DNA from: a virus
DNA: 64,000 nt
IMG/VR virus record: IMGVR_UViG_3300035180_002703
Location: 10,465 to 74,464 of that record
Reading direction: 5' to 3' (one strand)
Numbering within the stretch: the first letter of the stretch is position 1; every line of letters begins with the position of its first letter. The translations under genes and the position numbers were made by a program. A model generated the notes under the pieces. That model was not told the DNA's origin. It did no database searches and saw only the letters and a program-made list of their open reading frames with translations. Positions 30,158 through 49,758 of this stretch are shown here, piece after piece.

Positions 30158-30182
30158 CTCTGCGAGGCAAAGGAGGGGGGAA

Positions 30183-30548: not shown

Positions 30549-30937
30549 ACGAGAAGTCTTCTTCCGGTGGCTGGGAAGTCATCAGGTCCGCGATGGGCCG
30601 TGAGCTGGCCATGTTCAACGAGTACAGGCCGGCGACGTTCGAGTCACATTCGCTTTTGCGACGTTGCCCGTATTGCGGGCATTTGTCCGACCTTTCCGTT
30701 AGGTGGCGTCCCGGGGGGGCCTACGTCGAATGGGACTGCGAGCCGCGGTATTGCGGGCGACGCGGCTACGCATGGTGGAGGCGCAGGCCGCTGATCAGCA
30801 GGCTTCTTCGCAAGCTTCGGCGCGAGGGGATTACGCGCGATGACCTCAAGCGTCTCGGGGCAATCGCGGCAGAGGTCGCCTTCTGGCTTTGCTACGCTGC
30901 ATGGATGGCATCACTACTTGCGAAACTACGGAGATAG
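30545..30937 (+). CDS. zinc-ribbon membrane protein
   Basis: CPYC...EWDC...C plus TM. Confidence 0.6.
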   Translation: MNEKSSSGGWEVIRSAMGRELAMFNEYRPATFESHSLLRRCPYCGHLSDLSVRWRPGGAYVEWDCEPRYCGRRGYAWWRRRPLISRLLRKLRREGITRDDLKRLGAIAAEVAFWLCYAAWMASLLAKLRR

Positions 30938-30940
30938 AAA

Positions 30941-31897: not shown

Positions 31898-31898
31898 C

Positions 31899-32291
31899 AT
31901 GGTTGGTTCCCGTCGGATGAAGTACGGCAATAACCGGGTTCGGGTGGATGGGCAGTTGTTCGACTCTGTCGGAGAGTACGAGCATTGGAAGCATTTGCGG
32001 GAACGGGAGGCTGCCGGGGAGATCAGTGATCTGAAGCGACAGATGGCATTCGAGCTTGCTCCGTCACTTGTCCTCTGGGGTCGCAAGAAACCTGCATTGC
32101 GATACATCGCCGATTACGTGTACATGGAGAACGGCGAGCGTGTTGTCGCTGACTACAAGGGCGGGCCGCTGACGCCATTGTTTCGCGCGAAGGCGCATCT
32201 GCTGAAGGCGGTGCATGGCATCGATATCCTCATTGTGCGTGGTCGGGCCGATCGTCGCGGGAGGGGCGGAAATGAAGCGAATAACGCTTGA
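31899..32291 (+). CDS. DUF1064-family endonuclease
   Basis: KYGN..V.VDG..FDS..E...Y.ADY.Y...DYKG. Confidence 0.85.
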   Translation: MVGSRRMKYGNNRVRVDGQLFDSVGEYEHWKHLREREAAGEISDLKRQMAFELAPSLVLWGRKKPALRYIADYVYMENGERVVADYKGGPLTPLFRAKAHLLKAVHGIDILIVRGRADRRGRGGNEANNA

Positions 32292-33663
32292 TCTGAATGA
32301 TCTGGTTGTGCAGGGAAACATTCGGCGTTTGACGTTTGCCGAACGGGGCGCGTTCGACATATTATTGGAGCAGTATATCACGCGCGGAGGCTCGCTGCCG
32401 TTGGACGTGGACGAATGTTGCGATTTGGCCTCGGCGCGAACTGAGGAGGATCGGGCGGTAGTGAAGTCGACGCTGTCGGCGGCGTTTCGTGCGACCGATG
32501 ATGGTTGGCGCAGCACCTGGGCCGATGGTCTCGCGGAGCGTGTCGGTCGGCGTTCGGACACCTATCGGGAGAATGCCGTGGCGCGTTGGTCGAAGTCGCG
32601 GAATGGCGTTGATATCGCTGATAATGCATGCAATAGCATCGGCGAAAATGCAATTGCAATGCAATTGCATCCGGAGAAATGCAATTGCATCGGCTCGAAC
32701 GGGATCGGACCGAAAATCGCATCTGATAGTGCTGATAATGGCGTTGATATCGCTGATAACTCATGCAATTGCATCGAATCACATGCAATTGGAATGCAAT
32801 TGCATCAGGCGGAATGCAATTGCAATGCAATAGCATCGGCGGGAATGCAATTGCATCAGGCGGAATGCAATTGCAATGCAATAGCATCAGATTGCATGAA
32901 TTCGCATGGAATCGCGTCGAAAAGCGTCCAAGATGGCGATGATGACGCTGTTTCTGACGTTCCCCCCCCTTATAACCCCCCTATATACAAAGACTCTATA
33001 CTAATACAAAGAGTCTTTGACTCTAAGAGACTCTCTACCTCTGAAGACTCTATATCTAACAAAGAGTCTTGTAAGACTCTAAAAGACTATAAAGACGAAG
33101 AGAGTCTTGGCGTTGAGAAGAGAGATTGTACGAATTACCACTCTTGCGCAAATCGCGTCGATTTTGCGCTTTTCGATGTCGAAAACGACGTTGAAGCACA
33201 GGGCGATGGCGTTGCGCAACCTGACGTCGCGAACAACGCCACGACGCTGGACCCGGGGCACGGTGGTAGTAGTCGCTCGAAAGGATGGACCGCGGAGGAA
33301 GTGAAGGAGAAACAGTTGCGTGGCTTCAACAGGTTCTGGGAACTTCAACCCCGAAAGGTCGATAAGGCTCGGTGCTGGGCATGGTGGCAGCGCAACGTTC
33401 GCGAACGCGGCATCGCTCCGGCTATCATCAACGGCTTCAAGGCATATCTCGCCACGTGCAATCCGGAGGATAACTTCAAGTACGCGAAGCGACCCATAAC
33501 CTGGCTCCGTGGTAGGTGCTGGGAGGACGAAGGGCTCGATCCTTCTGCTCTGGAGGCTGTTCTACCTGCTCGCGAACCCATCCGCGATCTCGGATTCGAG
33601 TATAGTGCAGAGAATCTCGAACGAACGCTCGGAATCTCGCTTCCACGCGCGAAAAGCGGCTAA
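32272..33663 (+). CDS. phage replication initiator (YdaU/DUF1376-like N-terminus)
   Basis: ERGAFDILLEQY, central repeats, FNRFWELQPRKVDK...TWLRGRCWED; upstream of DnaB. Confidence 0.8.
   Translation: MKRITLDLNDLVVQGNIRRLTFAERGAFDILLEQYITRGGSLPLDVDECCDLASARTEEDRAVVKSTLSAAFRATDDGWRSTWADGLAERVGRRSDTYRENAVARWSKSRNGVDIADNACNSIGENAIAMQLHPEKCNCIGSNGIGPKIASDSADNGVDIADNSCNCIESHAIGMQLHQAECNCNAIASAGMQLHQAECNCNAIASDCMNSHGIASKSVQDGDDDAVSDVPPPYNPPIYKDSILIQRVFDSKRLSTSEDSISNKESCKTLKDYKDEESLGVEKRDCTNYHSCANRVDFALFDVENDVEAQGDGVAQPDVANNATTLDPGHGGSSRSKGWTAEEVKEKQLRGFNRFWELQPRKVDKARCWAWWQRNVRERGIAPAIINGFKAYLATCNPEDNFKYAKRPITWLRGRCWEDEGLDPSALEAVLPAREPIRDLGFEYSAENLERTLGISLPRAKSG
32600..33110. repeat. iteron-like repeats, probable replication origin
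   Basis: Many TGCAATTGCA palindromes (32646-32880), then AT-rich AAGACTCT/AGAGTCTT repeats (32989-33108). Confidence 0.65.
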
Positions 33664-33767
33664 TCCGGTTCGTTGTACTCGTTTCGGCTTAGAACGCGTC
33701 TGCGGGCATCCTGGCGCGATTACGGGGCATTGTGGAAGTTCGACGAAACTAGCATCGGAGGATTCGC

Positions 33768-35153
33768 GTGAGTAACAACCGTCTGCCGCCGCAAAGTCTG
33801 GAAATGGAACAGGCAGTCTGCGGCGCTATGCTGATCGACCCGGAAGCGGTCTGGACGTGCGCATCCATTCTCCGACAAACGGACTTCTACCGAGTCGAAC
33901 ATGGTACCGTCTTCGCAGCAGTCATCGCCGTCGCGTCGCGCGGGCAGGCGGTCGACGTGCTCACAGTCCAAGAAGAGCTTCGCTCGGCAGGCAATCTCGA
34001 AACTTGCGGAGGCGCTCCTTATCTGGTTCACCTCACAGACTGTGTACCTTCTGCAGCTAACGCGGAATATTATGCTAAGGTCGTGGCGGAGAAAGCTACT
34101 CTGCGACGTATCTCGGACGCTGGCTCGCAGCTGCGTACGATGGTCTATGCGGATTACGACGAAATCGGCGATGTCTGCGATAAGGCGTTTCGTACGGTCA
34201 TGGACGCAGTTTCGCATCGTGATAGTCGCAACCCATCAGACGCTCGTACGCTGGTCGAAGAAATTCTCGCGGAAGTCGATAAATTGCGCGAAACTGGAGA
34301 AATTCCGGGCCTTTCTACCGGATTCGCTGATCTCGATACGGCAACGGCGGGGTTCTGCGGAGGTGAACTCGTTATCGTCGCAGGCGCTCCGTCTATGGGC
34401 AAATCGGCTTTCGCGCTCCAAATCGCTCGCCACGTCGCTCGCAAGCACGGGCCCGTCCTTATCGTCTCACTCGAAATGTCTGGACGGGAAATCATGCATC
34501 GACAACTTTCTATCGAATCTGGTATCGACCTGCTACGATTGCGACGCGGAATGGTCTCGAAGGAAGAGCGAGAAACGCTAGATAGAGTCGGAAAGACTCT
34601 CTGCTCGGAACCGGTGCTCATTCACGATCGCGGCGTCGATTCGCTCGGCGCAATCCGACAAGCAGTTCGACGAATGAGGCCGGAACCGGTTATGGTGCTC
34701 GTCGATTACCTGCAAATCATGCGAGTCGAACGTGTCACGGATAATCGGGCGCAGGACCTCGGCGCTATCTGCAGAGGCTTGAAACGTCTCGGCATGGATT
34801 ACGAAATGCCAGTGGTCCTATTGTCACAACTTTCACGCGAAATCGCAAGGCGAAACGATCGCAAACCGGTTATGTCTGATCTCCGAGACTCGGGCGCGAT
34901 AGAACAGGACGCGGATATCGTGCTCGGATTGTATCGCGAGAATTACTACAAGTCACAAGGCGTTGTAACGCGAGACTCGCCACCGGAGGAAGCGGAAATC
35001 CTGATCATGAAACAACGCAACGGGCCGCGCGGTTCGGTTCGCGTTATGTTTCGACCGGCTACGGCGCAGTGGGCGTCTGGAATGTTTGGCGCGCGTGCTG
35101 ACGCATACACGCGATATGATCAGACGCCAAACGATGAAGACTATACCGACTAG
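33768..35153 (+). CDS. dnaB: replicative DNA helicase
   Basis: PPQSLEMEQ, GAPSMGKS, SLEMS, VDYLQ, LSQLSR, DLRDSGAIEQDAD, KQRNGP. Confidence 0.95.
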   Translation: MSNNRLPPQSLEMEQAVCGAMLIDPEAVWTCASILRQTDFYRVEHGTVFAAVIAVASRGQAVDVLTVQEELRSAGNLETCGGAPYLVHLTDCVPSAANAEYYAKVVAEKATLRRISDAGSQLRTMVYADYDEIGDVCDKAFRTVMDAVSHRDSRNPSDARTLVEEILAEVDKLRETGEIPGLSTGFADLDTATAGFCGGELVIVAGAPSMGKSAFALQIARHVARKHGPVLIVSLEMSGREIMHRQLSIESGIDLLRLRRGMVSKEERETLDRVGKTLCSEPVLIHDRGVDSLGAIRQAVRRMRPEPVMVLVDYLQIMRVERVTDNRAQDLGAICRGLKRLGMDYEMPVVLLSQLSREIARRNDRKPVMSDLRDSGAIEQDADIVLGLYRENYYKSQGVVTRDSPPEEAEILIMKQRNGPRGSVRVMFRPATAQWASGMFGARADAYTRYDQTPNDEDYTD

Positions 35154-35164
35154 GAGGGGAAGTT

Positions 35165-35503
35165 ATGCAGGTACCGGAACTCTTCACGATCGCGCGCGAA
35201 GCGGGCGTGCGCGTTCGCTTGATGGATGGGCGGATCGTGTTCGGGCCGCGCGCGGCGTTCGAAGCTCTACCGGCGCATGTTCAAGATGGTCTGCGTGCAG
35301 CGAAAGCGATCTTTGCATTACACGTGGACGAAACCGGAGAGGTGACTGGCTATCGGCAGTGGGGGCCGTGCGACGACACGGCGCATCCGGAAGGTCTCGG
35401 GCGTTGTGCAGTCTGTTGGCGGATAGTTCACAATGATGGCGTTTGTCGCATAGGCGATAACGGGGAATTCACGATCACTCACTCGGCTTGTTCTGGTACA
35501 TAG
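35165..35503 (+). CDS. hypothetical protein
   Basis: SD AGGAGG. Confidence 0.6.
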   Translation: MQVPELFTIAREAGVRVRLMDGRIVFGPRAAFEALPAHVQDGLRAAKAIFALHVDETGEVTGYRQWGPCDDTAHPEGLGRCAVCWRIVHNDGVCRIGDNGEFTITHSACSGT

Positions 35504-35616
35504 ATGGTAACGTTTTGGTCAATTTCAGGCTGTTTGGTAAGGCTTTGGTAAGGCGATGGTCAAGTCCTGGTAAGTTTGGTAAGGCTTTGGTAAGCTTCTG
35601 GTAAGGCTTTGGTACC
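35494..35616. repeat. 11-bp-phased TGGTAAG array
   Basis: TGGT at 35494, 35505, 35516, 35535, 35546, 35557, 35568, 35577, 35588, 35599, 35610. Confidence 0.85.
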
Positions 35617-35701
35617 ATCCTCGTGCTGTTTCTCCTTGTACTATCCTCAACGTCCGATAATGTGCTTTACGCCATTCGAGAAACTTTTTTTCGAAGTGGG
35701 C

Positions 35702-35730
35702 TTGACAAGCTCGGGCCGTTATGGTAGTAT
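35702..35730 (+). promoter_or_regulatory. sigma70 promoter
   Basis: TTGACA-17-TAGTAT, extended TG. Confidence 0.75.
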
Positions 35731-35771
35731 ATATTCATAACAAGGCGAAAGACGGAAGGGGGGCGAGGGGA

Positions 35772-36005
35772 ATGTGTTCAGTCGATGTAGAGGCGTTGCG
35801 GGATACCGTGAAGTGGCTTCGGGGGAGAAGTGAAGATCATCTTGTAGTAGCTCGGAACTGGGATAACGACGTCGCATACTATAGCGCTAAGCCGGGCTAC
35901 CGAGAAGAGGTTCAGGTGTATGCGGCGTTTCGGGATTCGTTTCGCAAGCGATCGGCGGAGGTGTTGGAGATCGCGGAGATGGTCGAGAAAGCGATACTAC
36001 CATGA
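35772..36005 (+). CDS. hypothetical protein
   Basis: SD, helical. Confidence 0.6.
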   Translation: MCSVDVEALRDTVKWLRGRSEDHLVVARNWDNDVAYYSAKPGYREEVQVYAAFRDSFRKRSAEVLEIAEMVEKAILP

Positions 36006-36022
36006 TGGAAGGAGGCAGGGGA

Positions 36023-36247
36023 ATGTCAGATGTGTTGCGTACGAGGCTGTTGGTAGGGAAACTGCGCGAGATTGGAACCGGTCTGCGAGAAAGCCAGGAG
36101 AAGTGTCCTGACAAGACGAACGCGATTGGTTGGGGTGATCGGGCGGATGGCGTGGAGGCTTTTGCTGACGCTCTGTCTAAGGCGCTGGACTCACACGCGC
36201 GATATGATGTGGAAACGGCGTTTGAGATTGTGTTTGGCGCGCGATAG
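36023..36247 (+). CDS. hypothetical protein
   Basis: SD AAGGAGG. Confidence 0.6.
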   Translation: MSDVLRTRLLVGKLREIGTGLRESQEKCPDKTNAIGWGDRADGVEAFADALSKALDSHARYDVETAFEIVFGAR

Positions 36248-36250
36248 AAA

Positions 36251-36313
36251 GCCGAAACCGGTCTTCGGGCCGGTCTATGCAGGACGGCTACCTGCATACT
36301 GAAGAGGCAAGCT
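36251..36313 (+). ncRNA. type II hammerhead ribozyme
   Basis: GCC GAAA-CCGGUC(UUCG)GGCCGG-UC-UAUGCAGG(loop)CCUGCAUA-CUGAAGA GGC. Confidence 0.92.
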
Positions 36314-36314
36314 T

Positions 36315-36347
36315 CTGCATAAGTCGGCACCTTCGGGGCCGCGGCAG
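36315..36347 (+). ncRNA. structured leader motif copy 6
   Basis: CUGC AUAAGU CGGC A CC(UUCG)GG GCCG CG GCAG. Confidence 0.8.
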
Positions 36348-36360
36348 GTTGGAGGTAGAT

Positions 36361-36669
36361 ATGACGTCGCAGGAGGAGTCTCGGGTGCGCCGTGTTCTGT
36401 CGGATTTATACTATGCTAGCAGTGAGGGGGAAGGACTGGCGAAGCAGTGGGAAGAGTGGGCACATGAGGCCGAAACTAATCAGAACAAGTGGATATCTGC
36501 TGAAGCGAAGGCGAAGAAGGCAGAATACTGCAGGAAGATTGCGGGGGTTCATGCTATGACTGCGATGCATTTGGGCGGTATTGCGGATGCTATTGCGGGT
36601 GCTATCAACGCTGGTGCGCTTGACGCGCTGGAAGACATATTCGGCGCGGTTTACGGGGTTCGGGATTAG
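36361..36669 (+). CDS. hypothetical protein
   Basis: SD GGAGG. Confidence 0.65.
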   Translation: MTSQEESRVRRVLSDLYYASSEGEGLAKQWEEWAHEAETNQNKWISAEAKAKKAEYCRKIAGVHAMTAMHLGGIADAIAGAINAGALDALEDIFGAVYGVRD

Positions 36670-36686
36670 CTTTGGCGTTGTGCTAG

Positions 36687-36719
36687 GCGCATAAGTCGGC
36701 ACCTATCGGGCCGCGGCGC
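36687..36719 (+). ncRNA. structured leader motif copy 7
   Basis: GCGC AUAAGU CGGC A..GCCG CG GCGC. Confidence 0.8.
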
Positions 36720-36735
36720 ATGGAGGGGCGAAGGA

Positions 36736-36990
36736 ATGTCTAAGGCGGAGCGGTTGCGGGGGCTAGTGTCGAAGTTGTACGAGATGGCGGATGGTGCGGG
36801 CGTTCGCGCGGCTTATAATCAAAGCTTGGCGAATAGGGAGCGGGAGTCTGAAGTGTGGGTTGCGCCGGAGTCGCGCGCGGCATTGGTCGCTATGTACCGG
36901 GCTCAAGCTGACGCTGCGGCGAATAGGAAGCTGGAGCTAGCATGGCTTGCTAATCAGGTCGAGCAGATACTGGATCAGGAGGGGGAATGA
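36736..36990 (+). CDS. hypothetical protein
   Basis: SD, helical. Confidence 0.65.
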   Translation: MSKAERLRGLVSKLYEMADGAGVRAAYNQSLANRERESEVWVAPESRAALVAMYRAQADAAANRKLELAWLANQVEQILDQEGE

Positions 36991-37289
36991 TGGATATCGA
37001 ACTGCTTCGAGTGATCGTTCAGGAACTGCGGGCCCGGGCCGCGAAACTGCAGGAAGAGGCGGGCGCATGGGCGGAGGATATGCAGAACATGGAGGCGAAG
37101 GCCGAAGCGAGTCCGGCGTTTCGCGAGGAATACTTGGAGAGTGCACGCGTGTCGAAGATATTCGCTAATGCAGGAAAGGCGCACGCGAAAGAACTGTCGG
37201 AGTTGGCGGAGCTGATCGATTCTGCCACGAACGGTTTCGCGGGCAAGGCGTTGTGCACGGCAATCGAGAGCGCGGCGCGGGCGCGCTAG
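36987..37289 (+). CDS. hypothetical protein
   Basis: ATGA coupling. Confidence 0.65.
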   Translation: MMDIELLRVIVQELRARAAKLQEEAGAWAEDMQNMEAKAEASPAFREEYLESARVSKIFANAGKAHAKELSELAELIDSATNGFAGKALCTAIESAARAR

Positions 37290-37302
37290 AAGGAGGGGAG
37301 CG

Positions 37303-37854
37303 ATGGATTTCGATAGGGTCGAAGGGGTTGCGTCGGAGTTGGAGTTCCGGGCGCGAGAGTATCGCAGACTCTCTCAGGAGGCCGCGGAGGCCGCGGAGAG
37401 GGCCGAGAAGTCGGACGGTTGGCAGACTCCTGAAGACAAGGCGCGCGAGGTGGTTCTGCACAAGGCGCGCGCGGAGTTGTACACCATGCGGGCGAGTGAG
37501 ATGGAGGATATGTCTCGGCGGTTGTACGACGCGTTGTATCCTGCCGAGGAGAAGGGCTGTCCGTCGTCGAAGAACTTCGACAGTCTCCGATTTGTCATGG
37601 CGGATATGTGGCATCGCGTGCAGGAATATCGCGATAACTCGCCGGAAATGCTGGCAGTTATCGTTCGGGCGGAGCAGGCGGATTGTTGGAAGACTGCGGA
37701 GGCCAAGGCGCGCGGGTGTGCATACTACGGGGAGTATGCGAAGGGATACAAGGACTGGGCGCGGGAGCTTGAGGATTTGGAATACGATTTGCGATATGGG
37801 CTGTTTCCTGAAGAGTACGAGCAGGAAGAGGAAGAGGAGAAGGAGGGGGAATAA
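37303..37854 (+). CDS. hypothetical acidic protein
   Basis: SD AAGGAGG; Glu-rich tail. Confidence 0.7.
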   Translation: MDFDRVEGVASELEFRAREYRRLSQEAAEAAERAEKSDGWQTPEDKAREVVLHKARAELYTMRASEMEDMSRRLYDALYPAEEKGCPSSKNFDSLRFVMADMWHRVQEYRDNSPEMLAVIVRAEQADCWKTAEAKARGCAYYGEYAKGYKDWARELEDLEYDLRYGLFPEEYEQEEEEEKEGE

Positions 37855-38132
37855 TGGACGCGAATCTGTTTTCGAAGTTCGTCTGCATGGTCAACGACCG
37901 CAAGGATGGTAAGACGTTCGGCGCGGATTTGAGGCTCAGGCCGAGTGGTCGTTTTATCCTCGTCGCTGACGAAGTCGAAGTCGCGAAGGCGCTGGGGCGG
38001 GAATACTACGACTGCGACCCGCGGAGGACTGCCATTGTCGAGATCAGCGTTCGCGATGCGTTCGCGATGATGGCGCGTGACTGTGACGAAGAGACTCTTG
38101 CGCACTATGCCCGCGTGTTGGCGCGGGCATAG
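37854..38132 (+). CDS. hypothetical protein, paralog of 38148
   Basis: FG.DLRL.P.GRF.LV...A.ALGR. Confidence 0.7.
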   Translation: MDANLFSKFVCMVNDRKDGKTFGADLRLRPSGRFILVADEVEVAKALGREYYDCDPRRTAIVEISVRDAFAMMARDCDEETLAHYARVLARA

Positions 38133-38147
38133 GAAGGAGGCGGAGGA

Positions 38148-38450
38148 ATGTCTGCAAAGTCGCGTTCGACGGGGTACCGAGAAGAGCGGTCGGAACATGT
38201 CTGCGTTCTCAGTACGCTATCGTACCATAATCCGTTTGGGCCGGAATTGCGGATAATGCCAGATGGCAGGTTCTTCATGGTCGGAAACGCGGGCGAGATC
38301 GCTGACGCGTTGGGACGGGATACCTGCGAAGGCAGTCGGTGGGCTAGCGTCGTTGTGTCGATCACGGCGCGCGAGGCGTTCGAACTACTGACGCGCGAAG
38401 GTGATTCGGAAACGTTGTCGCGCTATGCGTTCGCGCTAGCTGGCATGTAG
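38148..38450 (+). CDS. hypothetical protein, paralog of 37854
   Basis: FGPELRIMPDGRFFMV. Confidence 0.7.
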   Translation: MSAKSRSTGYREERSEHVCVLSTLSYHNPFGPELRIMPDGRFFMVGNAGEIADALGRDTCEGSRWASVVVSITAREAFELLTREGDSETLSRYAFALAGM

Positions 38451-38474
38451 GGAAACATACCAGGCAACGAACAC

Positions 38475-38503
38475 TTGACAAGTCTTTGCGGGCGTGATAT
38501 AAT
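38475..38503 (+). promoter_or_regulatory. sigma70 promoter
   Basis: TTGACA-17-TATAAT, extended TG. Confidence 0.9.
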
Positions 38504-38526
38504 ATGTGTGTTGGTGAACGGGAGGG

Positions 38527-38557
38527 GCCGGTAAGTCGCCACTACGGGGCGCGCGGT
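38527..38557 (+). ncRNA. structured leader motif copy 8
   Basis: GCCG GUAAGU CGCC A C(UACG)G GGCG CG CGGU. Confidence 0.8.
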
Positions 38558-38570
38558 TCGGAGGTGTTCG

Positions 38571-38954
38571 ATGGACGCGAAGGGGCTGGCGGTTCGTGTG
38601 AACGCGTTGCAGTGGCGAATCTGGAAGGGCGTCGGGGTCGAAGTGTCTTATGATGACGCTTACCGATTGCGAGGGGCGGCGGAGAGTCTGCGCCGGTGGT
38701 ATCGCATGGAATACGGAAACGGGCGCGGTCAGGTAACGCGCGATAAGTCTGGCAGGTCGGTTTTCGTCGATTGCGTTACGACTAAGGCGAAACCGGTTCC
38801 AGATCGTGAGGCGGTGGCGTTGCGTGAGGTTATGGAGGTATGCGCAAGGTGCGGTTTGGCATACCGAACGAGCCACGATTTCCGTGGTTCGGTCTTGTTC
38901 GTGTTCTCTCAGTCGGATACTACTGCGCATCCGAAGGCGGTCGCGTGCGAATGA
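38571..38954 (+). CDS. hypothetical protein, paralog of 40732
   Basis: DDA..LR.AA..LRRWY..E.G. Confidence 0.7.
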   Translation: MDAKGLAVRVNALQWRIWKGVGVEVSYDDAYRLRGAAESLRRWYRMEYGNGRGQVTRDKSGRSVFVDCVTTKAKPVPDREAVALREVMEVCARCGLAYRTSHDFRGSVLFVFSQSDTTAHPKAVACE

Positions 38955-39532
38955 GACCGCGAACCGATTGGGCGCAGATCGCGCCGAAACACTGGGACCG
39001 TGTCAGCGTCGGCATGGCGAACGCTGTGCTGCGCGTGGCGCGCGTGGTACATGGCGCGCGGAATGACCTCGAAACATGGATAACGTCAAGCGCCGTACCT
39101 GTGCGGGGCGAGTGGATGGGGGAGCATCCGAAGTTGGAGGATATCGCCGAAGGGCTTTCCGTTGTCGAGGATTTGCCGTTCGTGTCTCAGTATGATGGGC
39201 GATTCCACTACTACCAGGACATTCGAGAAGGGATTTTCTCGTGTCGCGTGTCCGAGCCCGTTCATGGCGGAGCTGTCGAAACGATCATAGAAACTGGTGC
39301 GGGTTGGTCCGCGCTTGCGGGGATGGTCGATTCCGAGGGGTTCTGCGAGGTTCGCGGAAACATGGAGAAGGCGGATTCCTACTGGTACGAGGCGTGGGCG
39401 GCGATAGGTTTGACGGCACCTATGGGGCCGGTTATGAAACATGGAGAGGGAGAGTGTCTGCGGTGGTTCAAGCGCGGATACGGGCATTATGCCGGGCCCA
39501 TTCAGCTGTCGTTACTCTTGGAGGCGGTCTGA
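38951..39532 (+). CDS. hypothetical protein with C-terminal QLSLL
   Basis: ATGA coupling; distantly like the AW.RAW family. Confidence 0.65.
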   Translation: MRPRTDWAQIAPKHWDRVSVGMANAVLRVARVVHGARNDLETWITSSAVPVRGEWMGEHPKLEDIAEGLSVVEDLPFVSQYDGRFHYYQDIREGIFSCRVSEPVHGGAVETIIETGAGWSALAGMVDSEGFCEVRGNMEKADSYWYEAWAAIGLTAPMGPVMKHGEGECLRWFKRGYGHYAGPIQLSLLLEAV

Positions 39533-39559
39533 ACGGGAGCACGAAAGCCGGGGGGGGGC

Positions 39560-39588
39560 TTGACAAGCTCTGTCGAGTGTGATATAAT
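39560..39588 (+). promoter_or_regulatory. sigma70 promoter
   Basis: TTGACA-17-TATAAT, extended TG. Confidence 0.9.
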
Positions 39589-39609
39589 ATGTGTGCAGTT
39601 GGACGGGGG

Positions 39610-39648
39610 GCCGATAAGTCGCCATTGCCAGTCTGGCAGGCGCGCGGT
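39610..39648 (+). ncRNA. structured leader motif copy 9
   Basis: GCCG AUAAGU CGCC AU UGCCA..UGGCA GGCG CG CGGU. Confidence 0.8.
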
Positions 39649-39656
39649 TCGGAGGA

Positions 39657-40334
39657 ATGAAGATGGACGCGGAGCAGGTTTGGGCGGCGTTGCCGGTGCG
39701 TTTGAAGAATGTGGCGCTTGCCATGGCCCGTGAGTATAATCACGGGTGGGCCGCGTCGTCTGCAGTACCGCCGGCGGGCGAATACTGGGAGTTTCCGGAG
39801 GAGGTCCCGTCGTTGGATCAGATCAAGGCGGGAACTCCTGAAGGACCGCGCGGGCGTGGTATCGCCGGCCCGTGCGTGTCGGGAGCTGACGGATTCTTGT
39901 ACATTACTCATGGCTCGGCCACGGGCAGGCTGCTCATTATCGTTCGGTATTCGGAGCAGGAGGGCGAGCGGTATACCGTGCGCATCGCTCGTCCGAACGG
40001 GAGGAACGCGCAGGGAACATACTGCGTGGATCAGCAGCAGTATGCCGGGAGCGCGGAGGCTACCGCGTGGGGCCCGCGGCATTTTGCCGCGTGGCATCGC
40101 GCGTGGGGAGTGCTTGGCCTTTCTCCGGCGTTCCCGGAACTCGCGCGAGAGTGGGAGTTCGACTTGACGGAGGAAGGAATCCCGAATGACGGGCGGTTGG
40201 AGTTTGCGACCGTTCACCTGCGGGCGGGAGCCCGTCCGCGGGCGGAGGACTTGTATGATTGTCTTCGCATCGCTGACGCAGTCTATGTTCACGGGGCGAA
40301 CGGAGGAGTCGCCCGGATAGTTGCGCAGGACTGA
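39657..40334 (+). CDS. hypothetical protein, AW.RAW paralog family
   Basis: VWAALP...AREY...HFAAWHRAW. Confidence 0.75.
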   Translation: MKMDAEQVWAALPVRLKNVALAMAREYNHGWAASSAVPPAGEYWEFPEEVPSLDQIKAGTPEGPRGRGIAGPCVSGADGFLYITHGSATGRLLIIVRYSEQEGERYTVRIARPNGRNAQGTYCVDQQQYAGSAEATAWGPRHFAAWHRAWGVLGLSPAFPELAREWEFDLTEEGIPNDGRLEFATVHLRAGARPRAEDLYDCLRIADAVYVHGANGGVARIVAQD

Positions 40335-40375
40335 TCGGCGGGAGCAGGTTCGGGCGCGTGCAGGTGCGGGCGAGG

Positions 40376-40615
40376 GGCGCAGAGTCTCTCGCTCGTGCTT
40401 GCGCGTGCTCGTGCGTGTCGGGCGCGTACGCGGGCGCATACGGTCGGGCGCGTGTTCGTGGTACCCGCGGGCGTTCGCGCGCGTCTCCGTCGATCCTGGC
40501 GCGATTATGGCGCATTCTGGCAGGGGCCCGGGCCGTCGTGCGTGCGTGCGTGCGTGTTCGCGTGCGTGCGTTCGCGTGTTGCCGTCTATGGTATCTGGCA
40601 ATAGGCGAAACATAC
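40376..40615. repeat. dispersed GC-rich intergenic repeat, copy A
   Basis: GGCGCAGAGTCTCTCGC...GATCCTGG block also at 41826-41973. Confidence 0.8.
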
Positions 40616-40638
40616 CGGGATAATCTTTCGGGCAGGGC

Positions 40639-40667
40639 TTGACAGGTTCGGCGGCGCATGGTAGTAT
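40639..40667 (+). promoter_or_regulatory. sigma70 promoter
   Basis: TTGACA-17-TAGTAT, extended TG. Confidence 0.75.
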
Positions 40668-40679
40668 ATATGCATAACT

Positions 40680-40718
40680 ACCGATAAGTCGTCACTACCG
40701 AGAGGCAGGGCGCGCGGT
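40680..40718 (+). ncRNA. structured leader motif copy 10
   Basis: ACCG AUAAGU CGUC A..GAGA loop..GGCG CG CGGU. Confidence 0.8.
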
Positions 40719-40731
40719 GCGGAGGGGTGAC

Positions 40732-41106
40732 ATGGACGCATACGATAAGACCGAACTCGTTCGGTTGCGGATTCTCGCCGGGTGCGGTGTCAAGCTTGCC
40801 TTTGATGATGCGCAGACTCTGCGCCGGGCCGCGCGAACGCTTCGCCGCTGGTACGAGGCGGAATGTGGGGATGCATCGGGCGTCGTTTTCCGCGGGCCGG
40901 GCGGTAAGCCGTTCCGCGAGTCTTATACGGGCGCGTCTGTTCCCGTACGCGATATGGAGTCTGGCGCGGTCCGCCGCGTGCAGGAGGTTTGTACGCGGTA
41001 TGGGCTAAGCTATAAGCTGAACACGGACCCGCGCGGCGGCGTGCTATATGTTACGTCTCCCGCGTTGTCGTTAGATTATTCGTTCGGTGTGCCCGTCGAC
41101 GTTTGA
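40732..41106 (+). CDS. hypothetical protein, paralog of 38571
   Basis: DDAQTLRRAARTLRRWYEAECG...DPRG. Confidence 0.75.
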   Translation: MDAYDKTELVRLRILAGCGVKLAFDDAQTLRRAARTLRRWYEAECGDASGVVFRGPGGKPFRESYTGASVPVRDMESGAVRRVQEVCTRYGLSYKLNTDPRGGVLYVTSPALSLDYSFGVPVDV

Positions 41107-41138
41107 TGGGGCGCAGGTTCGGGCGGGGTGCTGGTAGT

Positions 41139-41176
41139 CGCCGGTAAGGCGCTAACGCGAAGGCGGGCGCGCGGCG
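41139..41176 (+). ncRNA. structured leader motif copy 11
   Basis: CGCCG GUAAGG CGCU AA..GGCG CG CGGCG. Confidence 0.8.
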
Positions 41177-41189
41177 CAGGAGGGATTCG

Positions 41190-41594
41190 ATGGATTCTCA
41201 TGAGGTGTGGGCGGCGCTTCCGGAGCATGTGCGCGAAGTGGCGCAACGCATCGCGCGCGAATACGGGCCGAATGTCTCTCTTTCCGAGTCGGCGTTCGAG
41301 TGTTGCGGCGGGTTGTGTTGGGGATACCGCGGGTATGACGGGGCCCGATTCTATATCGCGATACTCTGGACCGAGGATAGGGGGTTGCGGTGCTTCGTTG
41401 GGGTCGACGGATACCTGCCGCATATCGCATATGGTTCGTGTTCGCTGACGGACGGGAAACTGCTTGAGCATCATGCAGACTCGGGAGAGTGGCAGGACCG
41501 TCACTATGCGGCGTGGCGTCGCGCGTGGGGCGCAGTCGGGTTGTCTGTGCCGTTTCCGGGAGCGGCGCAGGAGGTTCGCTATGATTGTCTGTGA
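41190..41594 (+). CDS. hypothetical protein, AW.RAW paralog family
   Basis: VWAALPEHV...HYAAWRRAWG. Confidence 0.75.
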   Translation: MDSHEVWAALPEHVREVAQRIAREYGPNVSLSESAFECCGGLCWGYRGYDGARFYIAILWTEDRGLRCFVGVDGYLPHIAYGSCSLTDGKLLEHHADSGEWQDRHYAAWRRAWGAVGLSVPFPGAAQEVRYDCL

Positions 41595-41790
41595 TTATCA
41601 CTCCAAGGGCCGGGGCGCGTCGTTCTCCGGGTCTCGGGTGACTATTCGGACCGCTTCAGGCAGTGTAGTCGACGTTATCTACGTGCCGTCATGGTACGGT
41701 TTGAGGTACCTGCGGCAGCATCCGTCTGGTACATACGGGCGCAGGTTCTCGGCGGCGTGCGCGCGGGCCCGGGAGTTGGATCAGGGCTAA
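41581..41790 (+). CDS. hypothetical protein
   Basis: SD AGGAGG. Confidence 0.55.
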   Translation: MIVCDYHSKGRGASFSGSRVTIRTASGSVVDVIYVPSWYGLRYLRQHPSGTYGRRFSAACARARELDQG

Positions 41791-41825
41791 GCGCGGTTCT
41801 CGGCGGGCGCAGTAAGCGGGCGGGA

Positions 41826-42241
41826 GGCGCAGAGTCTCTCGCCCGTTCGCGTGCGTGCGTGCTCGTGCTCGTGCTCGTGCGTGCGTGCGTGTCGGGCGCG
41901 TACGCGGGCGCATACGGTCGGGCGCGTGTCGCAGGTACCTGCGGGCGTTCGCGCGCGTCTCCGTCGATCCTGGAGCGGTTGCGGCGCATTCTGTCGCGGT
42001 GGTAGTCTGTCGGCGGCGTGTTCGCGTGTCGGTCGTTCGCGCGTGCGTGTTCGCGTGCACTACCTGCCGGGCGCGGTGGTAGTCTACCTGCCGGCGGCGC
42101 GGGCTGGATCGGGCGGCGCAGGTACCACGGCGGGCGCGTCGTGCTCGTGCTCGTGCGTGCGTATGCGTGCGTGCGTATGCGTGCGCGTGCGTGTTCGCGT
42201 GCGCGTTGCCGGGGGGTTGTCTGGCAATAGGCGAAACATAC
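41826..42241. repeat. dispersed GC-rich intergenic repeat, copy B
   Basis: Matches 40376-40615, including TCTGGCAATAGGCGAAACATAC. Confidence 0.8.
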
Positions 42242-42263
42242 TAAGTTTTTTTAGTCGCGGCTA

Positions 42264-42292
42264 TTGACTCGGCGCGCGCGGCGTGGTATTAT
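42264..42292 (+). promoter_or_regulatory. sigma70 promoter
   Basis: TTGACT-17-TATTAT, extended TG. Confidence 0.75.
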
Positions 42293-42303
42293 CTATGCAT
42301 AAC

Positions 42304-42342
42304 AACCGGTAAGGCGCTATCGCAAAGGCGAGGCGCGCGGTT
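42304..42342 (+). ncRNA. structured leader motif copy 12
   Basis: AACCG GUAAGG CGCU A UCGC(AAAG)GCGA GGCG CG CGGUU. Confidence 0.8.
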
Positions 42343-42349
42343 CGGAGGA

Positions 42350-42739
42350 ATGAAAATGGACGCTCTGCAGCAGGTTCGCGAAGCATGGGCCGGTCTGCCG
42401 TACCTGGTGAAGGCGCGCGCGGGCGCGGTGGCGGCAGTGTTCAACGTCGACGAGCCTTCTGACTATGCGTTTGTCGGTTCAGACGGTGCCTATGGCTGGT
42501 CGTGTGCGGTAGTTCCGAGCGGGCTTTCTGTTCTCATTCGTTCCCGGGCGTCCGGTATGCTCCTGGTCGTTACTGTGTACAACGAGGAAGGGCAGGCTAT
42601 CACGGCGTCGATCGGAGAGGACATGTTCGAAACTACAACGATCGGTACGGAGTGGGGGCCGCGGCAAGCGGCGCTTTGGAATCAGGTTTGGGCGGTTCTC
42701 GGATACCGTATGCCGTTTCCTGTTCCCGTGAAGTGCTAG
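42350..42739 (+). CDS. hypothetical protein, AW.RAW paralog family
   Basis: AWAGLP...WGPRQAALWNQVW..LG...PFP. Confidence 0.7.
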   Translation: MKMDALQQVREAWAGLPYLVKARAGAVAAVFNVDEPSDYAFVGSDGAYGWSCAVVPSGLSVLIRSRASGMLLVVTVYNEEGQAITASIGEDMFETTTIGTEWGPRQAALWNQVWAVLGYRMPFPVPVKC

Positions 42740-42785
42740 GCGTGCAAGGGCCGGGCGGGGCGCAAGCTCCGCTCGGCTTGCAGGT

Positions 42786-42825
42786 CGCCGGTAAGTCGCT
42801 AACGCCGGAAGGCGGGCGCGCGGCG
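42786..42825 (+). ncRNA. structured leader motif copy 13
   Basis: CGCCG GUAAGU CGCU AA CGCC(GGAA)GGCG GGCG CG CGGCG. Confidence 0.8.
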
Positions 42826-42838
42826 CAGGAGGAATGAC

Positions 42839-43018
42839 ATGGCCGGTTTCGTTGTCTGCTACATGCCGTCGGCGCAGTCGGCAGGTTCGGCGGAGCAGGT
42901 TCGGCGCGTGCAGGTTCGCGCGCAGGATACCCGGGCGCAGGACCGGGCGCGGGCGGTGCAGCGGGCGCAGGCGCGGCGTGCGAAGCTCTTCGAGCGGGCC
43001 GCCGAGTCTGTCGAGTAG
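42839..43018 (+). CDS. 59-aa Arg/Ala/Gln-rich peptide
   Basis: SD GGAGGA 5 nt before ATG 42839; absent from the ORF track. Confidence 0.5.
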   Translation: MAGFVVCYMPSAQSAGSAEQVRRVQVRAQDTRAQDRARAVQRAQARRAKLFERAAESVE

Positions 43019-46116: not shown

Positions 46117-46146
46117 TTGACAGTTTCGCGGGTTATTATCTATAAC
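46117..46146 (+). promoter_or_regulatory. probable sigma70 promoter
   Basis: TTGACA-18-TATAAC. Confidence 0.55.
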
Positions 46147-46246
46147 ACGGCGAATCTGCTGGTACGCCGTGTCCGTGCGCCGTAGCTTATCGGCGCGTAT
46201 GATATAGGCGGAAGGTCGTACTACTTGCGGTCTTCCGCCATTCTTT
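46145..46246 (+). ncRNA. candidate small RNA complementary to the leader motif
   Basis: Three consecutive inverted repeats, the last terminator-like; middle segment CCGUGCGCC-GUA-GCUUAUCGGC. Confidence 0.55.
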
Positions 46247-46422
46247 GGGGAGCATAGGGAGTAAGGGAGCATGGGCAGGGAGCGTCGGAATCTCTCGGCG
46301 GTCGAATTGGAGCAGGAACGGCGGGAGCGGGAGAGGGAGCGAAGGGAGCGGGAACGGCGCAGGAGTCGGCGCAGTAAGCGTCGCGGGTGGATGGATTCGG
46401 CGCAGTATAGGGAGTATGTCTG

Positions 46423-47259
46423 ATGCCGCGGACTAAGGGAGCGAAGGCGGGGGGTGACGATTCGAACGTCGCGCCGGTACGGACTACGAAGGGTCCGCCT
46501 ACTATGCGTGGCGCGCGGGAGATTGGGCAGCTAGTAACGGAGGAAGACGCGGCGGCCATTCGTGCGCAAGCGGAGGAGTATAATCGTGCGTCTGAGGAAC
46601 GAGAGTCGCTCGAAGTTGGAAAGGGGATACTCCCTCGGCGTCGCAAGGCGATAGTTCCTCGGCGTGCGAGGCCGAAGGGAGAGCTTGCGCCACTTCTTCC
46701 GCAGCAGGAGTTATTCGTCAAGGAGTATCTGACGCGTGCGCATAGAAGCGCGGCGGTTGCGGCGCGGCTTGCGGGGTATGGCAGGGATAAAGACGTCCAT
46801 AAAGTGATGGGCTATAAGCTAGTCCATCAGCCCAATATCAAGAATGCCATTGCGCGTGCGTTAGAAGCGACTCGGATGGAGGTCGAGGAGGCCATGTCGC
46901 GGCTTGGGGCTGCGGCGCGCGGGGTTGGTGCGTATCTACGCGCGGACGAAACCGGGTATTTGACGTTGGACGTGAAGCAGATGCTCGAAGACGGCAACGG
47001 TGATTTGATTGTTGAGATATCGGATAACGGGCGGGGTCAGACGGTGAAATTTGCGAATCCGCAGGAGGCTCAGAAGTTCATTGCGTCTGTTGGTATGAAA
47101 GTTGAGACGGGGTTTGGCGCGAAGAACGTTCAGCCTACTGCGCGGGTGGATGTTGACTTGAACGTAGTATTCAAGAGCGTGGCGGACATTTTGACGGAGC
47201 GTGCGGGGTTGACGATCGACGCGGAGAAATCGCCCAATGAATATACCGACGTCGATTGA
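46423..47259 (+). CDS. terS: terminase small subunit
   Basis: QELFVKEYL...AARLAGY...PNIKNAI; overlaps the TerL start. Confidence 0.8.
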   Translation: MPRTKGAKAGGDDSNVAPVRTTKGPPTMRGAREIGQLVTEEDAAAIRAQAEEYNRASEERESLEVGKGILPRRRKAIVPRRARPKGELAPLLPQQELFVKEYLTRAHRSAAVAARLAGYGRDKDVHKVMGYKLVHQPNIKNAIARALEATRMEVEEAMSRLGAAARGVGAYLRADETGYLTLDVKQMLEDGNGDLIVEISDNGRGQTVKFANPQEAQKFIASVGMKVETGFGAKNVQPTARVDVDLNVVFKSVADILTERAGLTIDAEKSPNEYTDVD

Positions 47260-49132
47260 TCCTCTTTCCGCGGAGCGGATACAAGCGGCCATTGATGCGT
47301 TGAAGGCGCAGGGCAAGGACCCGACGCTAGAGTTGAACACTGCGATGCAGGAGGCGCAGCAGAAGGCCTTTCGAGTATGGCGAGATGGCAGTCCTCCGAT
47401 GTCGCTTGGTCCGTTTGCGTATCGGGTTGCGGGGTTCAACCTATCGGCGCGTCAGGAGGCGGCGTTTCGTGGCGCGGGGTTATGGTATCCGCAGGATGTG
47501 ATATCGCCCGACAGGCGTGTTCAGGAGGTTGTGCTAGCGTTTGGCAAGGGCAGCGGCAAGGACCGTATCGCGAGCATATTCATTGCCTACATGGCGTACT
47601 TGGTGCTTCACTTGGCGGGTGATCCTGCGATCTACTATGGTCTTGCGCCAAAGACGCCATTGCACATCCTGAACGTCGCGCCGTCGGAGGACTTGGCGCG
47701 GCGTGTTTTCTTTGCCTACCTGAAGCAGGATATCGGGAGTGATTTGTTTGCGCCGTTCATTACGAATCCGAAGATGCAGATACTGTCGGACGAAATCCGG
47801 TTTCCAGATGTTGGGTTGTACTTGTACTCGGCGCATTCCAACTCGAAGGGTATGGATGGGTACAACCTATTGGCATGGATCATGGACGAAGCCGATGACT
47901 TCCTCGATAACGAGAAGCGGAGCAATGCGGATATCGTCCACAACATCCTGCGGTCTTCTGCCAACACCCGTTTGCGGAACCGTTGGGTTGGAATGGTTAT
48001 CAGCTACATGCGGTATGCGGAGGGGTTTGTAGACCGCGTATACCGTCGTGGCAAGGGCGACCCGACGTTCTTTGTTGACAAGGCGGCGACGTGGGAGGTG
48101 CGCGAGGATGTAAGTCGTGACGATCCGGGCATTGCGTCCGACTACGCGAACGACCCGGCGGATGCGGCGGCGCGGTACGAGTGTAGGCCGCTTCAGATTG
48201 CGGATGCGTTCTTCGAGATGCCGGAGAAGATCGACGCGGCTGTTGATAACGAGCGGTTTCCGTGCATTGACGTGGTGACGAACGAGATCATACGGTCGGA
48301 GCGTCCGGACGGATCGGTGATTGAGACGATAGGTGGGGGTTTACTGAGTTCCCACCCAAAGCCTGGGGCGACATACTTTCTAGCGGGTGATGGCGGGCTT
48401 TCGGGCGACTCCTTTGCCATTGCATTGTTCCGTGTTGACGCGCAGGAGAGGGGCGCGGAGTGGCTATGCCCGGATTGCACGCGGTTCGGGACTGATCAGG
48501 AGGTGCTCGGTGTAGCGCACTACGAGATCATGCCGCCGTATTCTCGTGCGGAGGAGGATGCTTACTGCGGCGTGTGTGGGATGGCGATCACCGAGCGTGA
48601 ATACGGCACGTTACGATGCGACGGGTGGGCGCACAAGGTAATGGGCGAGCGCAAGTCGGTGCTTGTGAACGGTCGTCCTGTGACGTTGCCACAGGTGATT
48701 GAGGAGGGTCTGTTGGAGTTCAGGCCGGAGCGTGCGTCTCGGGTTGGGCAGGTCAACCGGCCCGTAAACTTCGCGTCGGTTCAGAATGTGTGCCGAGACA
48801 TTATCCAGTCGTGCGCTGTGGTACAGGCTCGGTTTGACCCCTGGAACACTGCGCAGATGGTGCAGGGGTTGCAGGGCGTTTGCGATGTAGACGTTATTCA
48901 GTTCTCACAACCGGAGCAATACCGTCGGGCGCGGGTTGTCAAGGCGATGTTGTATGCAGGGTTGATTTCTTTGTTGCCGAATGAGAAAAGGGACAAGGAA
49001 TGGAAGCGTCTACAGCGAAATAAGGAGCGTATCGATCACCCCGAGGGAGGGTCCAAGGATTTGTACGATGCGGAGTCTGTTGCCATATGGTTGGCTGCCC
49101 GATGGGCATGTGGCGCGCTAGAGGTGGTCTAA
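47237..49132 (+). CDS. terL: terminase large subunit
   Basis: GKGSGKD Walker A, IMDEAD Walker B, FDPWN, IDHP..GSKDLYDA. Confidence 0.9.
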   Translation: MNIPTSIDPLSAERIQAAIDALKAQGKDPTLELNTAMQEAQQKAFRVWRDGSPPMSLGPFAYRVAGFNLSARQEAAFRGAGLWYPQDVISPDRRVQEVVLAFGKGSGKDRIASIFIAYMAYLVLHLAGDPAIYYGLAPKTPLHILNVAPSEDLARRVFFAYLKQDIGSDLFAPFITNPKMQILSDEIRFPDVGLYLYSAHSNSKGMDGYNLLAWIMDEADDFLDNEKRSNADIVHNILRSSANTRLRNRWVGMVISYMRYAEGFVDRVYRRGKGDPTFFVDKAATWEVREDVSRDDPGIASDYANDPADAAARYECRPLQIADAFFEMPEKIDAAVDNERFPCIDVVTNEIIRSERPDGSVIETIGGGLLSSHPKPGATYFLAGDGGLSGDSFAIALFRVDAQERGAEWLCPDCTRFGTDQEVLGVAHYEIMPPYSRAEEDAYCGVCGMAITEREYGTLRCDGWAHKVMGERKSVLVNGRPVTLPQVIEEGLLEFRPERASRVGQVNRPVNFASVQNVCRDIIQSCAVVQARFDPWNTAQMVQGLQGVCDVDVIQFSQPEQYRRARVVKAMLYAGLISLLPNEKRDKEWKRLQRNKERIDHPEGGSKDLYDAESVAIWLAARWACGALEVV

Positions 49133-49758
49133 TGACAGAGGAAGAGTTTAGACGGACCTTCGACCCGTTACGCTCCTATGCGCTTCATCTCGCTCGTGCT
49201 ATGAGTTGTTCGGCTGATGAAGCGGAGGACGTGGCGCAGGACGCTATGGTAAGGGCATACAATCATCGGGACGAATACGACCCGATGCGGCCCGCCCGTG
49301 CCTGGTTTACGGTGATTGTGCGACACATTGTGATCGACCATCATCGCAGGGCTGCGCACCGGGAGCACGTTGTGGAGGTTGCGCGTGACGCGTACCCTGT
49401 AGTGACGCGCGATCCGTCGTGTGATTTGGCGATACTGGGCATATTAGCGGATGCCGCGGCGCGTGCGAGTTGTGGTGCAATGGACATAGACGCTGCGATC
49501 ATGGCGCATGTGCAGGGGTACACGTACAAGGAGATTGCGCGCGAGCTGTCGATGGAGGGGAGATTTGTAAGCGTTGCCCAGGCAAAGAGATTGGCGCGCG
49601 TAGGTCTCGACCGATTGAAATCGGAGCTACTTCGCGCGGGTAGTGGGGTTCCGAGCAATGACACCAGGTCCCGCAGACGCCGATGCCGTAGCAGAGACAT
49701 GAGGATTGAGATTGAGAGTGAGGATTGCCAGGGATCGCTTCCATTTCTGATTGACTAG
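49132..49758 (+). CDS. ECF-type RNA polymerase sigma factor
   Basis: AEDVAQDAMVRAY...WF..IVR...ID..R (region 2); GYTYKEIA (region 4). Confidence 0.88.
   Translation: MTEEEFRRTFDPLRSYALHLARAMSCSADEAEDVAQDAMVRAYNHRDEYDPMRPARAWFTVIVRHIVIDHHRRAAHREHVVEVARDAYPVVTRDPSCDLAILGILADAAARASCGAMDIDAAIMAHVQGYTYKEIARELSMEGRFVSVAQAKRLARVGLDRLKSELLRAGSGVPSNDTRSRRRRCRSRDMRIEIESEDCQGSLPFLID

Follow-up and report, generated by a model that had tools for sequence, protein, structure and literature searches.

Background

Why would a short non-coding segment, lodged just upstream of the terminase genes of a phage, carry the exact antisense of both arms of a leader that precedes one of its early genes? The segment, at positions 46117..46246 of the plus strand, belongs to a window of 64 kb, by which we mean the whole stretch of 64,000 nucleotides that was analysed, taken from a 74.5-kb IMG/VR virus record rated 67% complete. 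The phage is uncultivated, its genome is 63% GC, and every gene is on the plus strand.

The temporal programmes of phages are known to be run by proteins: repressors, antiterminators, sigma factors, and factors of the RegA/RegB type. Known phage antisense RNAs address one or two sites each. The answer that we favour, with a confidence a little short of even, is that the segment encodes a plus-strand antisense RNA directed against a family of early leaders, and that this RNA doubles as the attenuated leader of the operon that encodes terminase and a sigma factor. If this is true, an RNA that addresses an entire family of structured leaders, and that is physically joined to a late-operon gate, would be a new regulatory design.

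Genome context

The replication and early region begins near 19 kb, ends at a terminator (43069-43094), and contains genes for a beta clamp, DnaB, a DUF1376 initiator and pentapeptide proteins. Its last gene is a 59-aa ORF located behind the thirteenth leader (42839-43018, plus strand); the terminator comes next, with the tail ATTCTTT, the same as in the candidate unit. A 3-kb array of words, non-coding and strand-asymmetric, occupies positions 43226-46080 (~43.2-46.1 kb), between two terminators, and is followed by the candidate unit.

The sole close relative that we recovered is L041, a metagenome contig of 1865 nucleotides whose TerS is 95% identical. In the alignment with this relative, the unit is free of gaps from about 46085 on, whereas the array upstream differs by many substitutions and by indels whose lengths are not multiples of three. 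Two plus-strand ORFs that run out of the stop-poor array (42834-43766 and 43973-46120), and a minus-strand ORF of 77 aa (46272-46039), were rejected as coding sequences: they have no ribosome-binding site and low-complexity translations and, for the array ORFs, the lengths of the indels are a further reason.

Elsewhere in the early region, the DUF1376 gene (32215-33663) contains, at 32600-32910 on the plus strand, dense direct and inverted ATGCAATTGCA repeats that resemble origin iterons.

The candidate transcription unit

The unit opens with a sigma-70-type promoter on the plus strand (46117..46146), composed of the -35 box TTGACA (46117-46122), an 18-nt spacer, and the -10 box TATAAC (46141-46146). 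Unlike the early promoters it is without TG extension; its hexamers are identical in L041. The relaxed pattern TTGAC[AT]-16..18-TAnnAn has 14 matches in the genome, all on the plus strand and almost all before genes, where an estimate based on composition gives about 0.1: the match at 46117 is thus very unlikely to be due to chance. Over the -10 box, at 46129-46149, lies an inverted repeat GTTAT-N5-ATAAC, lengthened by C-G and G-C pairs and unchanged in L041; it could be an operator.

The other end of the unit is an intrinsic terminator on the plus strand (46207..46246), with a 14-bp stem and a 5-nt loop CUACU (46207-46239), a tail AUUCUUU, and a predicted energy of -20.1 kcal/mol. It has what is expected of such terminators, namely a stem-loop rich in GC and, after it on the transcribed strand, a tract rich in T. 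The sequence-only reading of this locus had described the same promoter, and had called the hairpin at 46207-46239 and its ATTCTTT terminator-like. The letters and coordinates of the promoter are as it gave them, and an independent scan returned the terminator, among just five sites of the 74-kb genome where a hairpin precedes a T tract. Three G.U pairs of the stem become C.A mismatches on the minus strand, so that the terminator is specific to the plus strand.

We infer that these signals delimit a non-coding RNA of ~94 nt (46153..46246, plus strand), whose 3' end would be the T tract. Its 5' end is less certain. A start about 7 nt past the -10 box, near 46153, omits the 5' arm (46147-46152) of a first hairpin (46147..46170, plus strand; ACGGCG / CGCCGT with a 12-nt loop), which would be part of the RNA only if transcription began at or before 46147; the ambiguity of the start site, already pointed out in the sequence-only reading, thus extends to this hairpin. 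The second hairpin (46176..46197, plus strand) is folded by ViennaRNA as a 7-bp stem (46176-46182 / 46191-46197) closed by the loop UAGCUUAU (46183-46190), which contains CUUA, a YUNR-type motif. The only -10-like sequence past the predicted start is TATGAT, some 45 nt downstream (46198-46203). A search of 46050-46300 with Rfam cmscan, under permissive filters, yields no family at E<=10, C4 included. Going by these signals, the segment looks like a discrete plus-strand transcription unit; alternatively, a longer transcript might end here, with the candidate RNA as its 3' end.

A family of structured leaders

A structural scan, together with a covariance model that we built, identifies exactly 13 leaders, all on the plus strand and scoring from 42.8 to 51.1 bits, which span 21322..42839. 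Their RUAAG words start at positions 21328, 23892, 25663, 26514, 26931, 36319, 36691, 38531, 39614, 40684, 41144, 42309 and 42791. The common fold is P1 - RUAAGY - P2 - variable hairpin - P2' - CR - P1'. Compensatory changes are present at 6 of the 8 pairs, in both helices, and 94.5% of the cells are paired; shuffles reach 80%, and sliding the partners lowers the figure to 28-48%.

Each leader stops 3-5 nt short of a GGAGG-type ribosome-binding site, and the 13 genes behind them belong to the early/replication region. Eight leaders stand behind strong promoters of the TTGACA-17-TGnTATAAT type, and type II hammerhead ribozymes (Rfam RF02276; 26866-26933 and 36250-36316, plus strand; 38.7 and 31.0 bits) lie directly upstream of copies 5 and 6. 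The leader motif matches no Rfam family, and in the literature we found no description of it or of the candidate RNA. When 185,579 species genomes are searched with the leader pattern, the 15 matches come from unrelated taxa, lack the promoter and ribosome-binding-site context, and fit chance.

Complementarity between the unit and the leaders

The bipartite core of the unit (46173..46194, plus strand) consists of CCGTGCGCC (46173-46181), a GTA linker (46182-46184) and GCTTATCGGC (46185-46194). The first segment complements the 3' arm of the leader; the second complements the 5' arm, including RUAAGY. As the sequence-only reading had it, down to letters and coordinates, the core is the exact reverse complement of the arms GCCGATAAGC (26510-26519) and GGCGCACGG (26531-26539) of copy 4, a leader that occupies 26508..26556 on the plus strand, with its ribosome-binding site 3-5 nt further on. 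Where copy 4 has its inner hairpin, the core has 3 nt. The proposal that the complement of the leader loop is exposed by a hairpin agrees with the predicted fold, in which this complement is the loop UAGCUUAU on its 7-bp stem.

Mismatch-free pairing with both arms occurs, in the 74-kb genome, at copy 4 alone, where 19 of 19 positions form Watson-Crick pairs. Counting G.U pairs, of which they have one to three, four further leaders are paired at all 19 positions, for a total of five leaders with 0 mismatches. Six others have 1-3 mismatches, located at the ends of the 19-position pairing, and the two leaders whose P1 and P2 are rewritten (36319 and 36691) pair poorly. Position by position, the three variable positions of the leaders do sit opposite U, U and G of the core, as had been claimed. 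If each of the 13 leaders is used in turn to derive an antisense, copy 4 yields the best one, with 23 total mismatches versus 26-90 for the others; the theoretical minimum is 17.

The energy of the duplex formed by the 22-nt core averages -30.3 kcal/mol over the leaders, versus -19.4 +/- 4.0 for random genome segments, and 12 of the 13 leaders are within the top 4%. The net ddG, in which both partners must be unfolded, averages -14.9 kcal/mol for the leaders and -8.9 for random targets. A comparison with shuffles, which the sequence-only reading had suggested as a check, is also favourable: dinucleotide-shuffled versions of the RNA give a predicted -9.7 +/- 2.5 kcal/mol, and 5 of 150 do as well. 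Raw duplex energies are less selective, since several non-leader sites of this 63% GC genome equal or better the leaders, which hold 7 of the 12 top places; computed with long segments, raw energies do not discriminate in such a GC-rich genome. We thus consider the predicted pairing signal as real but moderate.

Two other places of the genome contain words that recall the leaders. On the plus strand of the word array, CCGTGCGGC is found seven times and GCTTCTCGGC twice, each being a single mismatch removed from the two arms in the candidate RNA; both words come in "antisense leader" order at 45516-45550, where the minus strand scores 10.3 bits. Weak matches to the leader model in 43000-46400 are on the minus strand in 19 cases out of 21. 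These leader-like words could be a composition effect, or could have a common origin. The other place is a second unit without ORF, on the minus strand at 18806-18930, where a TTGACA-17-TATACT promoter with TG extension is followed by a terminator-like hairpin; its RNA begins near a leader-like AGCCGUAAGC plus hairpin. The pairing of the candidate RNA with this unit (minus strand, 18930-18810) is negligible, with a ddG of -3.8.

Conservation of the unit

Over 46117-46246, the relative L041 has six differences, all in loops or in the promoter spacer: position 46124 is in the spacer, 46162 and 46163 in the loop of hairpin 1, 46189 in the loop of hairpin 2, and 46222 and 46224 in the loop of the terminator. 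No change is seen at the 73 positions of the hexamers, stems and T tract. The chance that all six changes avoid the constrained positions is (57/130)^6 = 0.007, or about 0.04 if adjacent changes are counted as one event. The unit diverges by 4.6% and the third codon positions of terS by 10%, so that the unit changes about half as fast as synonymous sites. With the loop change A46189G, a G.U pair is retained with a leader U that is invariant in 16/16 aligned leaders; on the minus strand, the same change would disrupt UAAG, which is invariant. Finally, contigs from four metagenome DNA runs were compared over 26400-46300 and, among the matches listed, the only variants within the unit are those of the terminator loop, 46222/46224. 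Small as the sample behind each of these results is, their combination indicates that purifying selection acts on a structured unit of the plus strand. As far as such comparisons of sequences can tell, the element is real and under constraint.

Relatives are few. One more homologue of TerS, P0002, is 86% identical. A megablast of 45000-49200 against cultured phages gives no match, and a tblastn search with TerL gives only matches of 23-32% identity, in phages of Thermus, Brevibacillus, Rhodococcus and Streptomyces. Searching IMG/VR with TerS, TerL and a TerS alignment returned no relatives, and the exact hairpin core has 0 matches there. The looser pattern of arms without inner hairpin has 29, all in unrelated coding or random contexts, which fits chance.

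Alternative explanations

The sequence-only reading had cautioned that the core might be a truncated copy of a leader, read on the minus strand, a possibility that is now largely ruled out. With the leader model, the minus strand at 46164-46196 scores 10.0 bits, versus 42.8-55.1 for true copies (43-51 for the 13 copies of this phage), and it lacks the leader architecture, P2 and its hairpin being absent. Neither a TTGACA/TATAAT pair, nor a ribozyme, nor GGAGG with a start codon, nor a gene is seen on the minus strand at the unit. Local alignment with the leader cassettes detects no similarity beyond the two arms, and the flanks score below shuffled controls: conserved arms sit between unrelated flanks. 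Had the copy been old and neutral, it would not have held 19/19 arm positions while losing all else; had it been recent, its flanks would still be recognisable. The broader version of this idea, namely that a leader fragment, inverted long ago and without function, forms the core and happens to lie beside the terminator insulating the late genes, and that no dedicated RNA is made from the promoter-like hexamers, does have some appeal. The minus-strand core reads as a leader without P2, if only as a weak covariance-model match; leader cassettes have clearly multiplied in this genome; and the words of the adjacent array, one mismatch away from both arms, suggest a neighbourhood that generates such sequences. 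However, besides the intact arms, a neutral relic would have to account for changes in L041 that run at about half the synonymous rate and spare all stem and hexamer positions, and for a promoter match far above chance, and we consider it improbable. An even more remote idea, to which we give very little credit, is that a protein binds the shared sequence in DNA, or binds the hairpin in RNA, base pairing having no part in it. Early and late promoters alike would then offer GCCGATAAGC / GGCGCACGG to a regulator able to recognise it in both orientations; all copies are indeed ~10-70 bp downstream of promoter -10 elements or ribozymes, and the orientation of a DNA site need not matter. But the compensatory base-pair changes in both helices of the leaders, the variable spacing of their arms (7 to 15 nt of loop plus P2), and the copies that follow hammerhead ribozymes instead of promoters together point to an RNA, and not to a DNA operator.

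The most serious rival takes its argument from what lies downstream. The plus-strand operon at 46271..49758 has no promoter of its own, and comprises a 50-aa ORF (46271-46423), terS (46423-47259; Pfam Terminase_2), terL (47237-49132; PHROG terminase large subunit) and a gene for a sigma-70-family factor (49087-49758; Pfam Sigma70_r2, PHROG 1740) that overlaps the end of terL; the portal gene comes next. The 50-aa ORF is very rich in Arg and Glu, overlaps the start of terS and matches no family; with three synonymous changes and one Val-to-Ile with respect to L041, it is probably coding. In the 25 nt that separate the first ATG (46271) from the T tract (46246), and in the stretch before terS, no sigma-70-like promoter is found. 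The promoter at 46117 is thus the only visible one for this operon, and the candidate RNA is also its attenuated 5' leader, a point that the sequence-only reading had missed. Since the gated operon encodes a sigma factor, read-through of the terminator is a plausible master step into late expression.

It is therefore conceivable that the unit is purely cis-acting, a late-operon leader with an attenuator comparable to lambda PR'-tR'/6S, the short RNA being a by-product. The terminator would hold the operon off until a phage antiterminator, or another signal, permits read-through. The complementarity to the leaders would have no role in trans, or else the early leader RNAs, being abundant, would pair with the nascent late leader and so time the read-through. 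This accounts fully for the position and architecture of the unit: the terminator is strong and conserved, a sigma factor in the gated operon makes it a natural master switch, and the terminator at 43069-43094, which bounds the array upstream, blocks read-in from early transcription. What it leaves unexplained is a hairpin holding 19 nt exactly antisense to the arms of the leaders, between flanks that have no homology. In addition, neither the MFE nor the centroid structures contain an alternative fold that competes with the terminator, and no Q, N or other antiterminator family is detected among the 30 proteins scanned with Pfam and PHROGs; most early proteins, and much of the proteome, match no family. 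We hold a purely cis-acting unit to be a strong rival, if a rather unlikely one. The antisense and attenuator readings are compatible, so that the attenuator can also be seen as a complement.

Proposed mechanism and known systems

By analogy, we think that the element is best read as an antisense RNA, a variant of the P1 C4 / P4 CI kind, and that the unit may let an RNA control the change from early to late expression. A ~94-nt plus-strand RNA would be made from its own sigma-70-type promoter and end at the strong terminator, 25 nt before the first gene of the operon. Its loop UAGCUUAU would kiss the unpaired RUAAGY internal loop of a leader, with 6 bp; pairing would then spread into both arms, up to 19 bp around the bulged leader hairpin. 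The leader would thereby be unfolded, the duplex would come to lie a few nucleotides from the ribosome-binding site, and the early mRNAs would be silenced or destabilised as a group. Terminated molecules would be the small RNA, and those that pass the terminator would serve as mRNA for terminase and the phage sigma factor. Because the candidate RNA is the promoter-proximal part of the late transcript, we propose that early shut-off is coupled to late onset.

Part of this scheme goes back to the sequence-only reading, according to which one small RNA could control many early mRNAs. The complementarity covers most leaders and the predicted pairing beats its controls; action in trans is what we infer from them. 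Several observations weigh against the antisense reading. The arms of the RNA are locked in its own 7-bp GC stem, and the leaders share the top raw duplex energies with other sites. With TATAAC, an 18-nt spacer and no TG, the promoter is weaker than the early ones; being near-consensus, it would also fire early, a poor fit to a late switch unless it is regulated. The complete scheme, in which a single small RNA, by kissing and then bipartite pairing, switches off 13 early mRNAs and is produced by attenuation of the terminase-sigma leader, is a tentative conjecture, with the odds against it.

The small immunity RNAs of phages P1 and P7 (C4) and P4 (CI) are encoded on the same strand as their targets, and carry two short segments complementary to mRNA leader sequences, near the ribosome-binding site or in the leader; as a result, a block of genes is shut off. 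RNase P releases them from a leader, that of the operon under their control, and their targets are in the same transcript. PMC5499578 cites C4 and CI as RNase P substrates (its refs 49, 50). Like them, the candidate is on the strand of its targets, and shows two-segment complementarity to leaders that end 3-5 nt before GGAGG. Unlike them, it is framed by a promoter and a terminator of its own, and its 13 targets, scattered over 21 kb of upstream sequence, belong to separate transcripts; these targets are themselves a conserved folded motif. The covariance model detects no leader downstream of 46246, hence no target in the candidate's own operon transcript. The mechanism thus resembles that of C4 and CI, while neither an Rfam match nor targets in the same transcript are found. 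Nor does anything point to an immunity role, which the sequence-only reading had entertained in speaking of an immunity switch: we see no sign of a lysogenic immunity function.

In phage lambda, PR'-tR' is a near-consensus promoter followed within ~100 nt by an intrinsic terminator, before the late genes, and its default product is the short 6S RNA, for which no antisense targets are known. The PR'-tR'/Q antitermination mechanism is described in bioRxiv 10.1101/651190 and PMC9388147. The unit has the same layout, a promoter and then an intrinsic terminator right before late/packaging genes that have no other promoter. It differs in that no Q-like protein (30 proteins scanned), no Q-binding element and no promoter-proximal sigma-dependent pause element was identified and, in contrast with the 6S RNA, it carries the exact antisense of a repeated leader.

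A leader transcript that doubles as a regulator has a precedent in SreA and SreB of Listeria, terminated riboswitch leader transcripts that act in trans as base-pairing small RNAs. The candidate is likewise a 5' leader ending at its own terminator and proposed to double as a pairing RNA, but no ligand-binding aptamer or alternative fold is evident in it. Global shut-off of early mRNAs is known from phage T4, where RegA is a translational repressor protein and RegB an endoribonuclease. Here also, one proposed factor would act on a short element shared by many early phage mRNAs, at or near their ribosome-binding sites; the factor would be an RNA instead of a protein, and the shared element is a folded leader.

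If the complete scheme is correct, early shut-off and late onset would be two outputs of a single RNA element, an RNA-only counterpart of RegA/RegB joined to a lambda-like late gate. It would also offer the first functional handle on an uncharacterised leader motif, which is shared by at least two unrelated phage groups, stands beside type II hammerhead ribozymes, and is without a match in Rfam. With a standard sigma-70-type promoter and short parts, the hypothesis can be tested on synthetic constructs, despite the uncultivated phage and host.

Leaders in a second group of phages

The same leader motif is present in a second group of IMG/VR phages, G001-G005, which are not close relatives and have 3-4 copies each. 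These copies are located at L042 13080-13992 (minus strand), L044 14875-15590 (minus), L048 7148-8495 (plus), L050 11050-11765 (plus) and L051 1-803 (minus), in a row before small genes and beside a divergent XRE/Cro-like gene. They display further compensatory P1/P2 changes, such as CCC/GGG, CGC/GCG and CGUC/GACG, and include the same arm sequences as copy 4. A hammerhead (RF02276, 54.5 bits) at L042 13130-13197, minus strand, is upstream of the third leader of that phage; with hammerheads before leaders in both phage groups, the ribozyme-leader module is conserved across them.

No antisense element is found in the second group at <=3 mismatches, or at <=2 with G.U pairs; one of the records has terminal repeats. 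Since this group has the leaders and the hammerhead-leader module without antisense, the leader motif works without such an RNA, and the candidate RNA, if functional, is a lineage-specific addition. The sequence-only reading had stated that related phages keeping the leaders without the element would speak against it: G001-G005 do keep them in this way, although they are not close relatives.

Another repeated cassette of promoter plus structured leader, unrelated to the leader motif, is found in the second group. It consists of TTGACA...TACAAT followed by GGCGGCTTTGCGAAGCC..., and occurs on the plus strand at positions 6236 and 23807 of G004, and 8376, 26425 and 45135 of G001.
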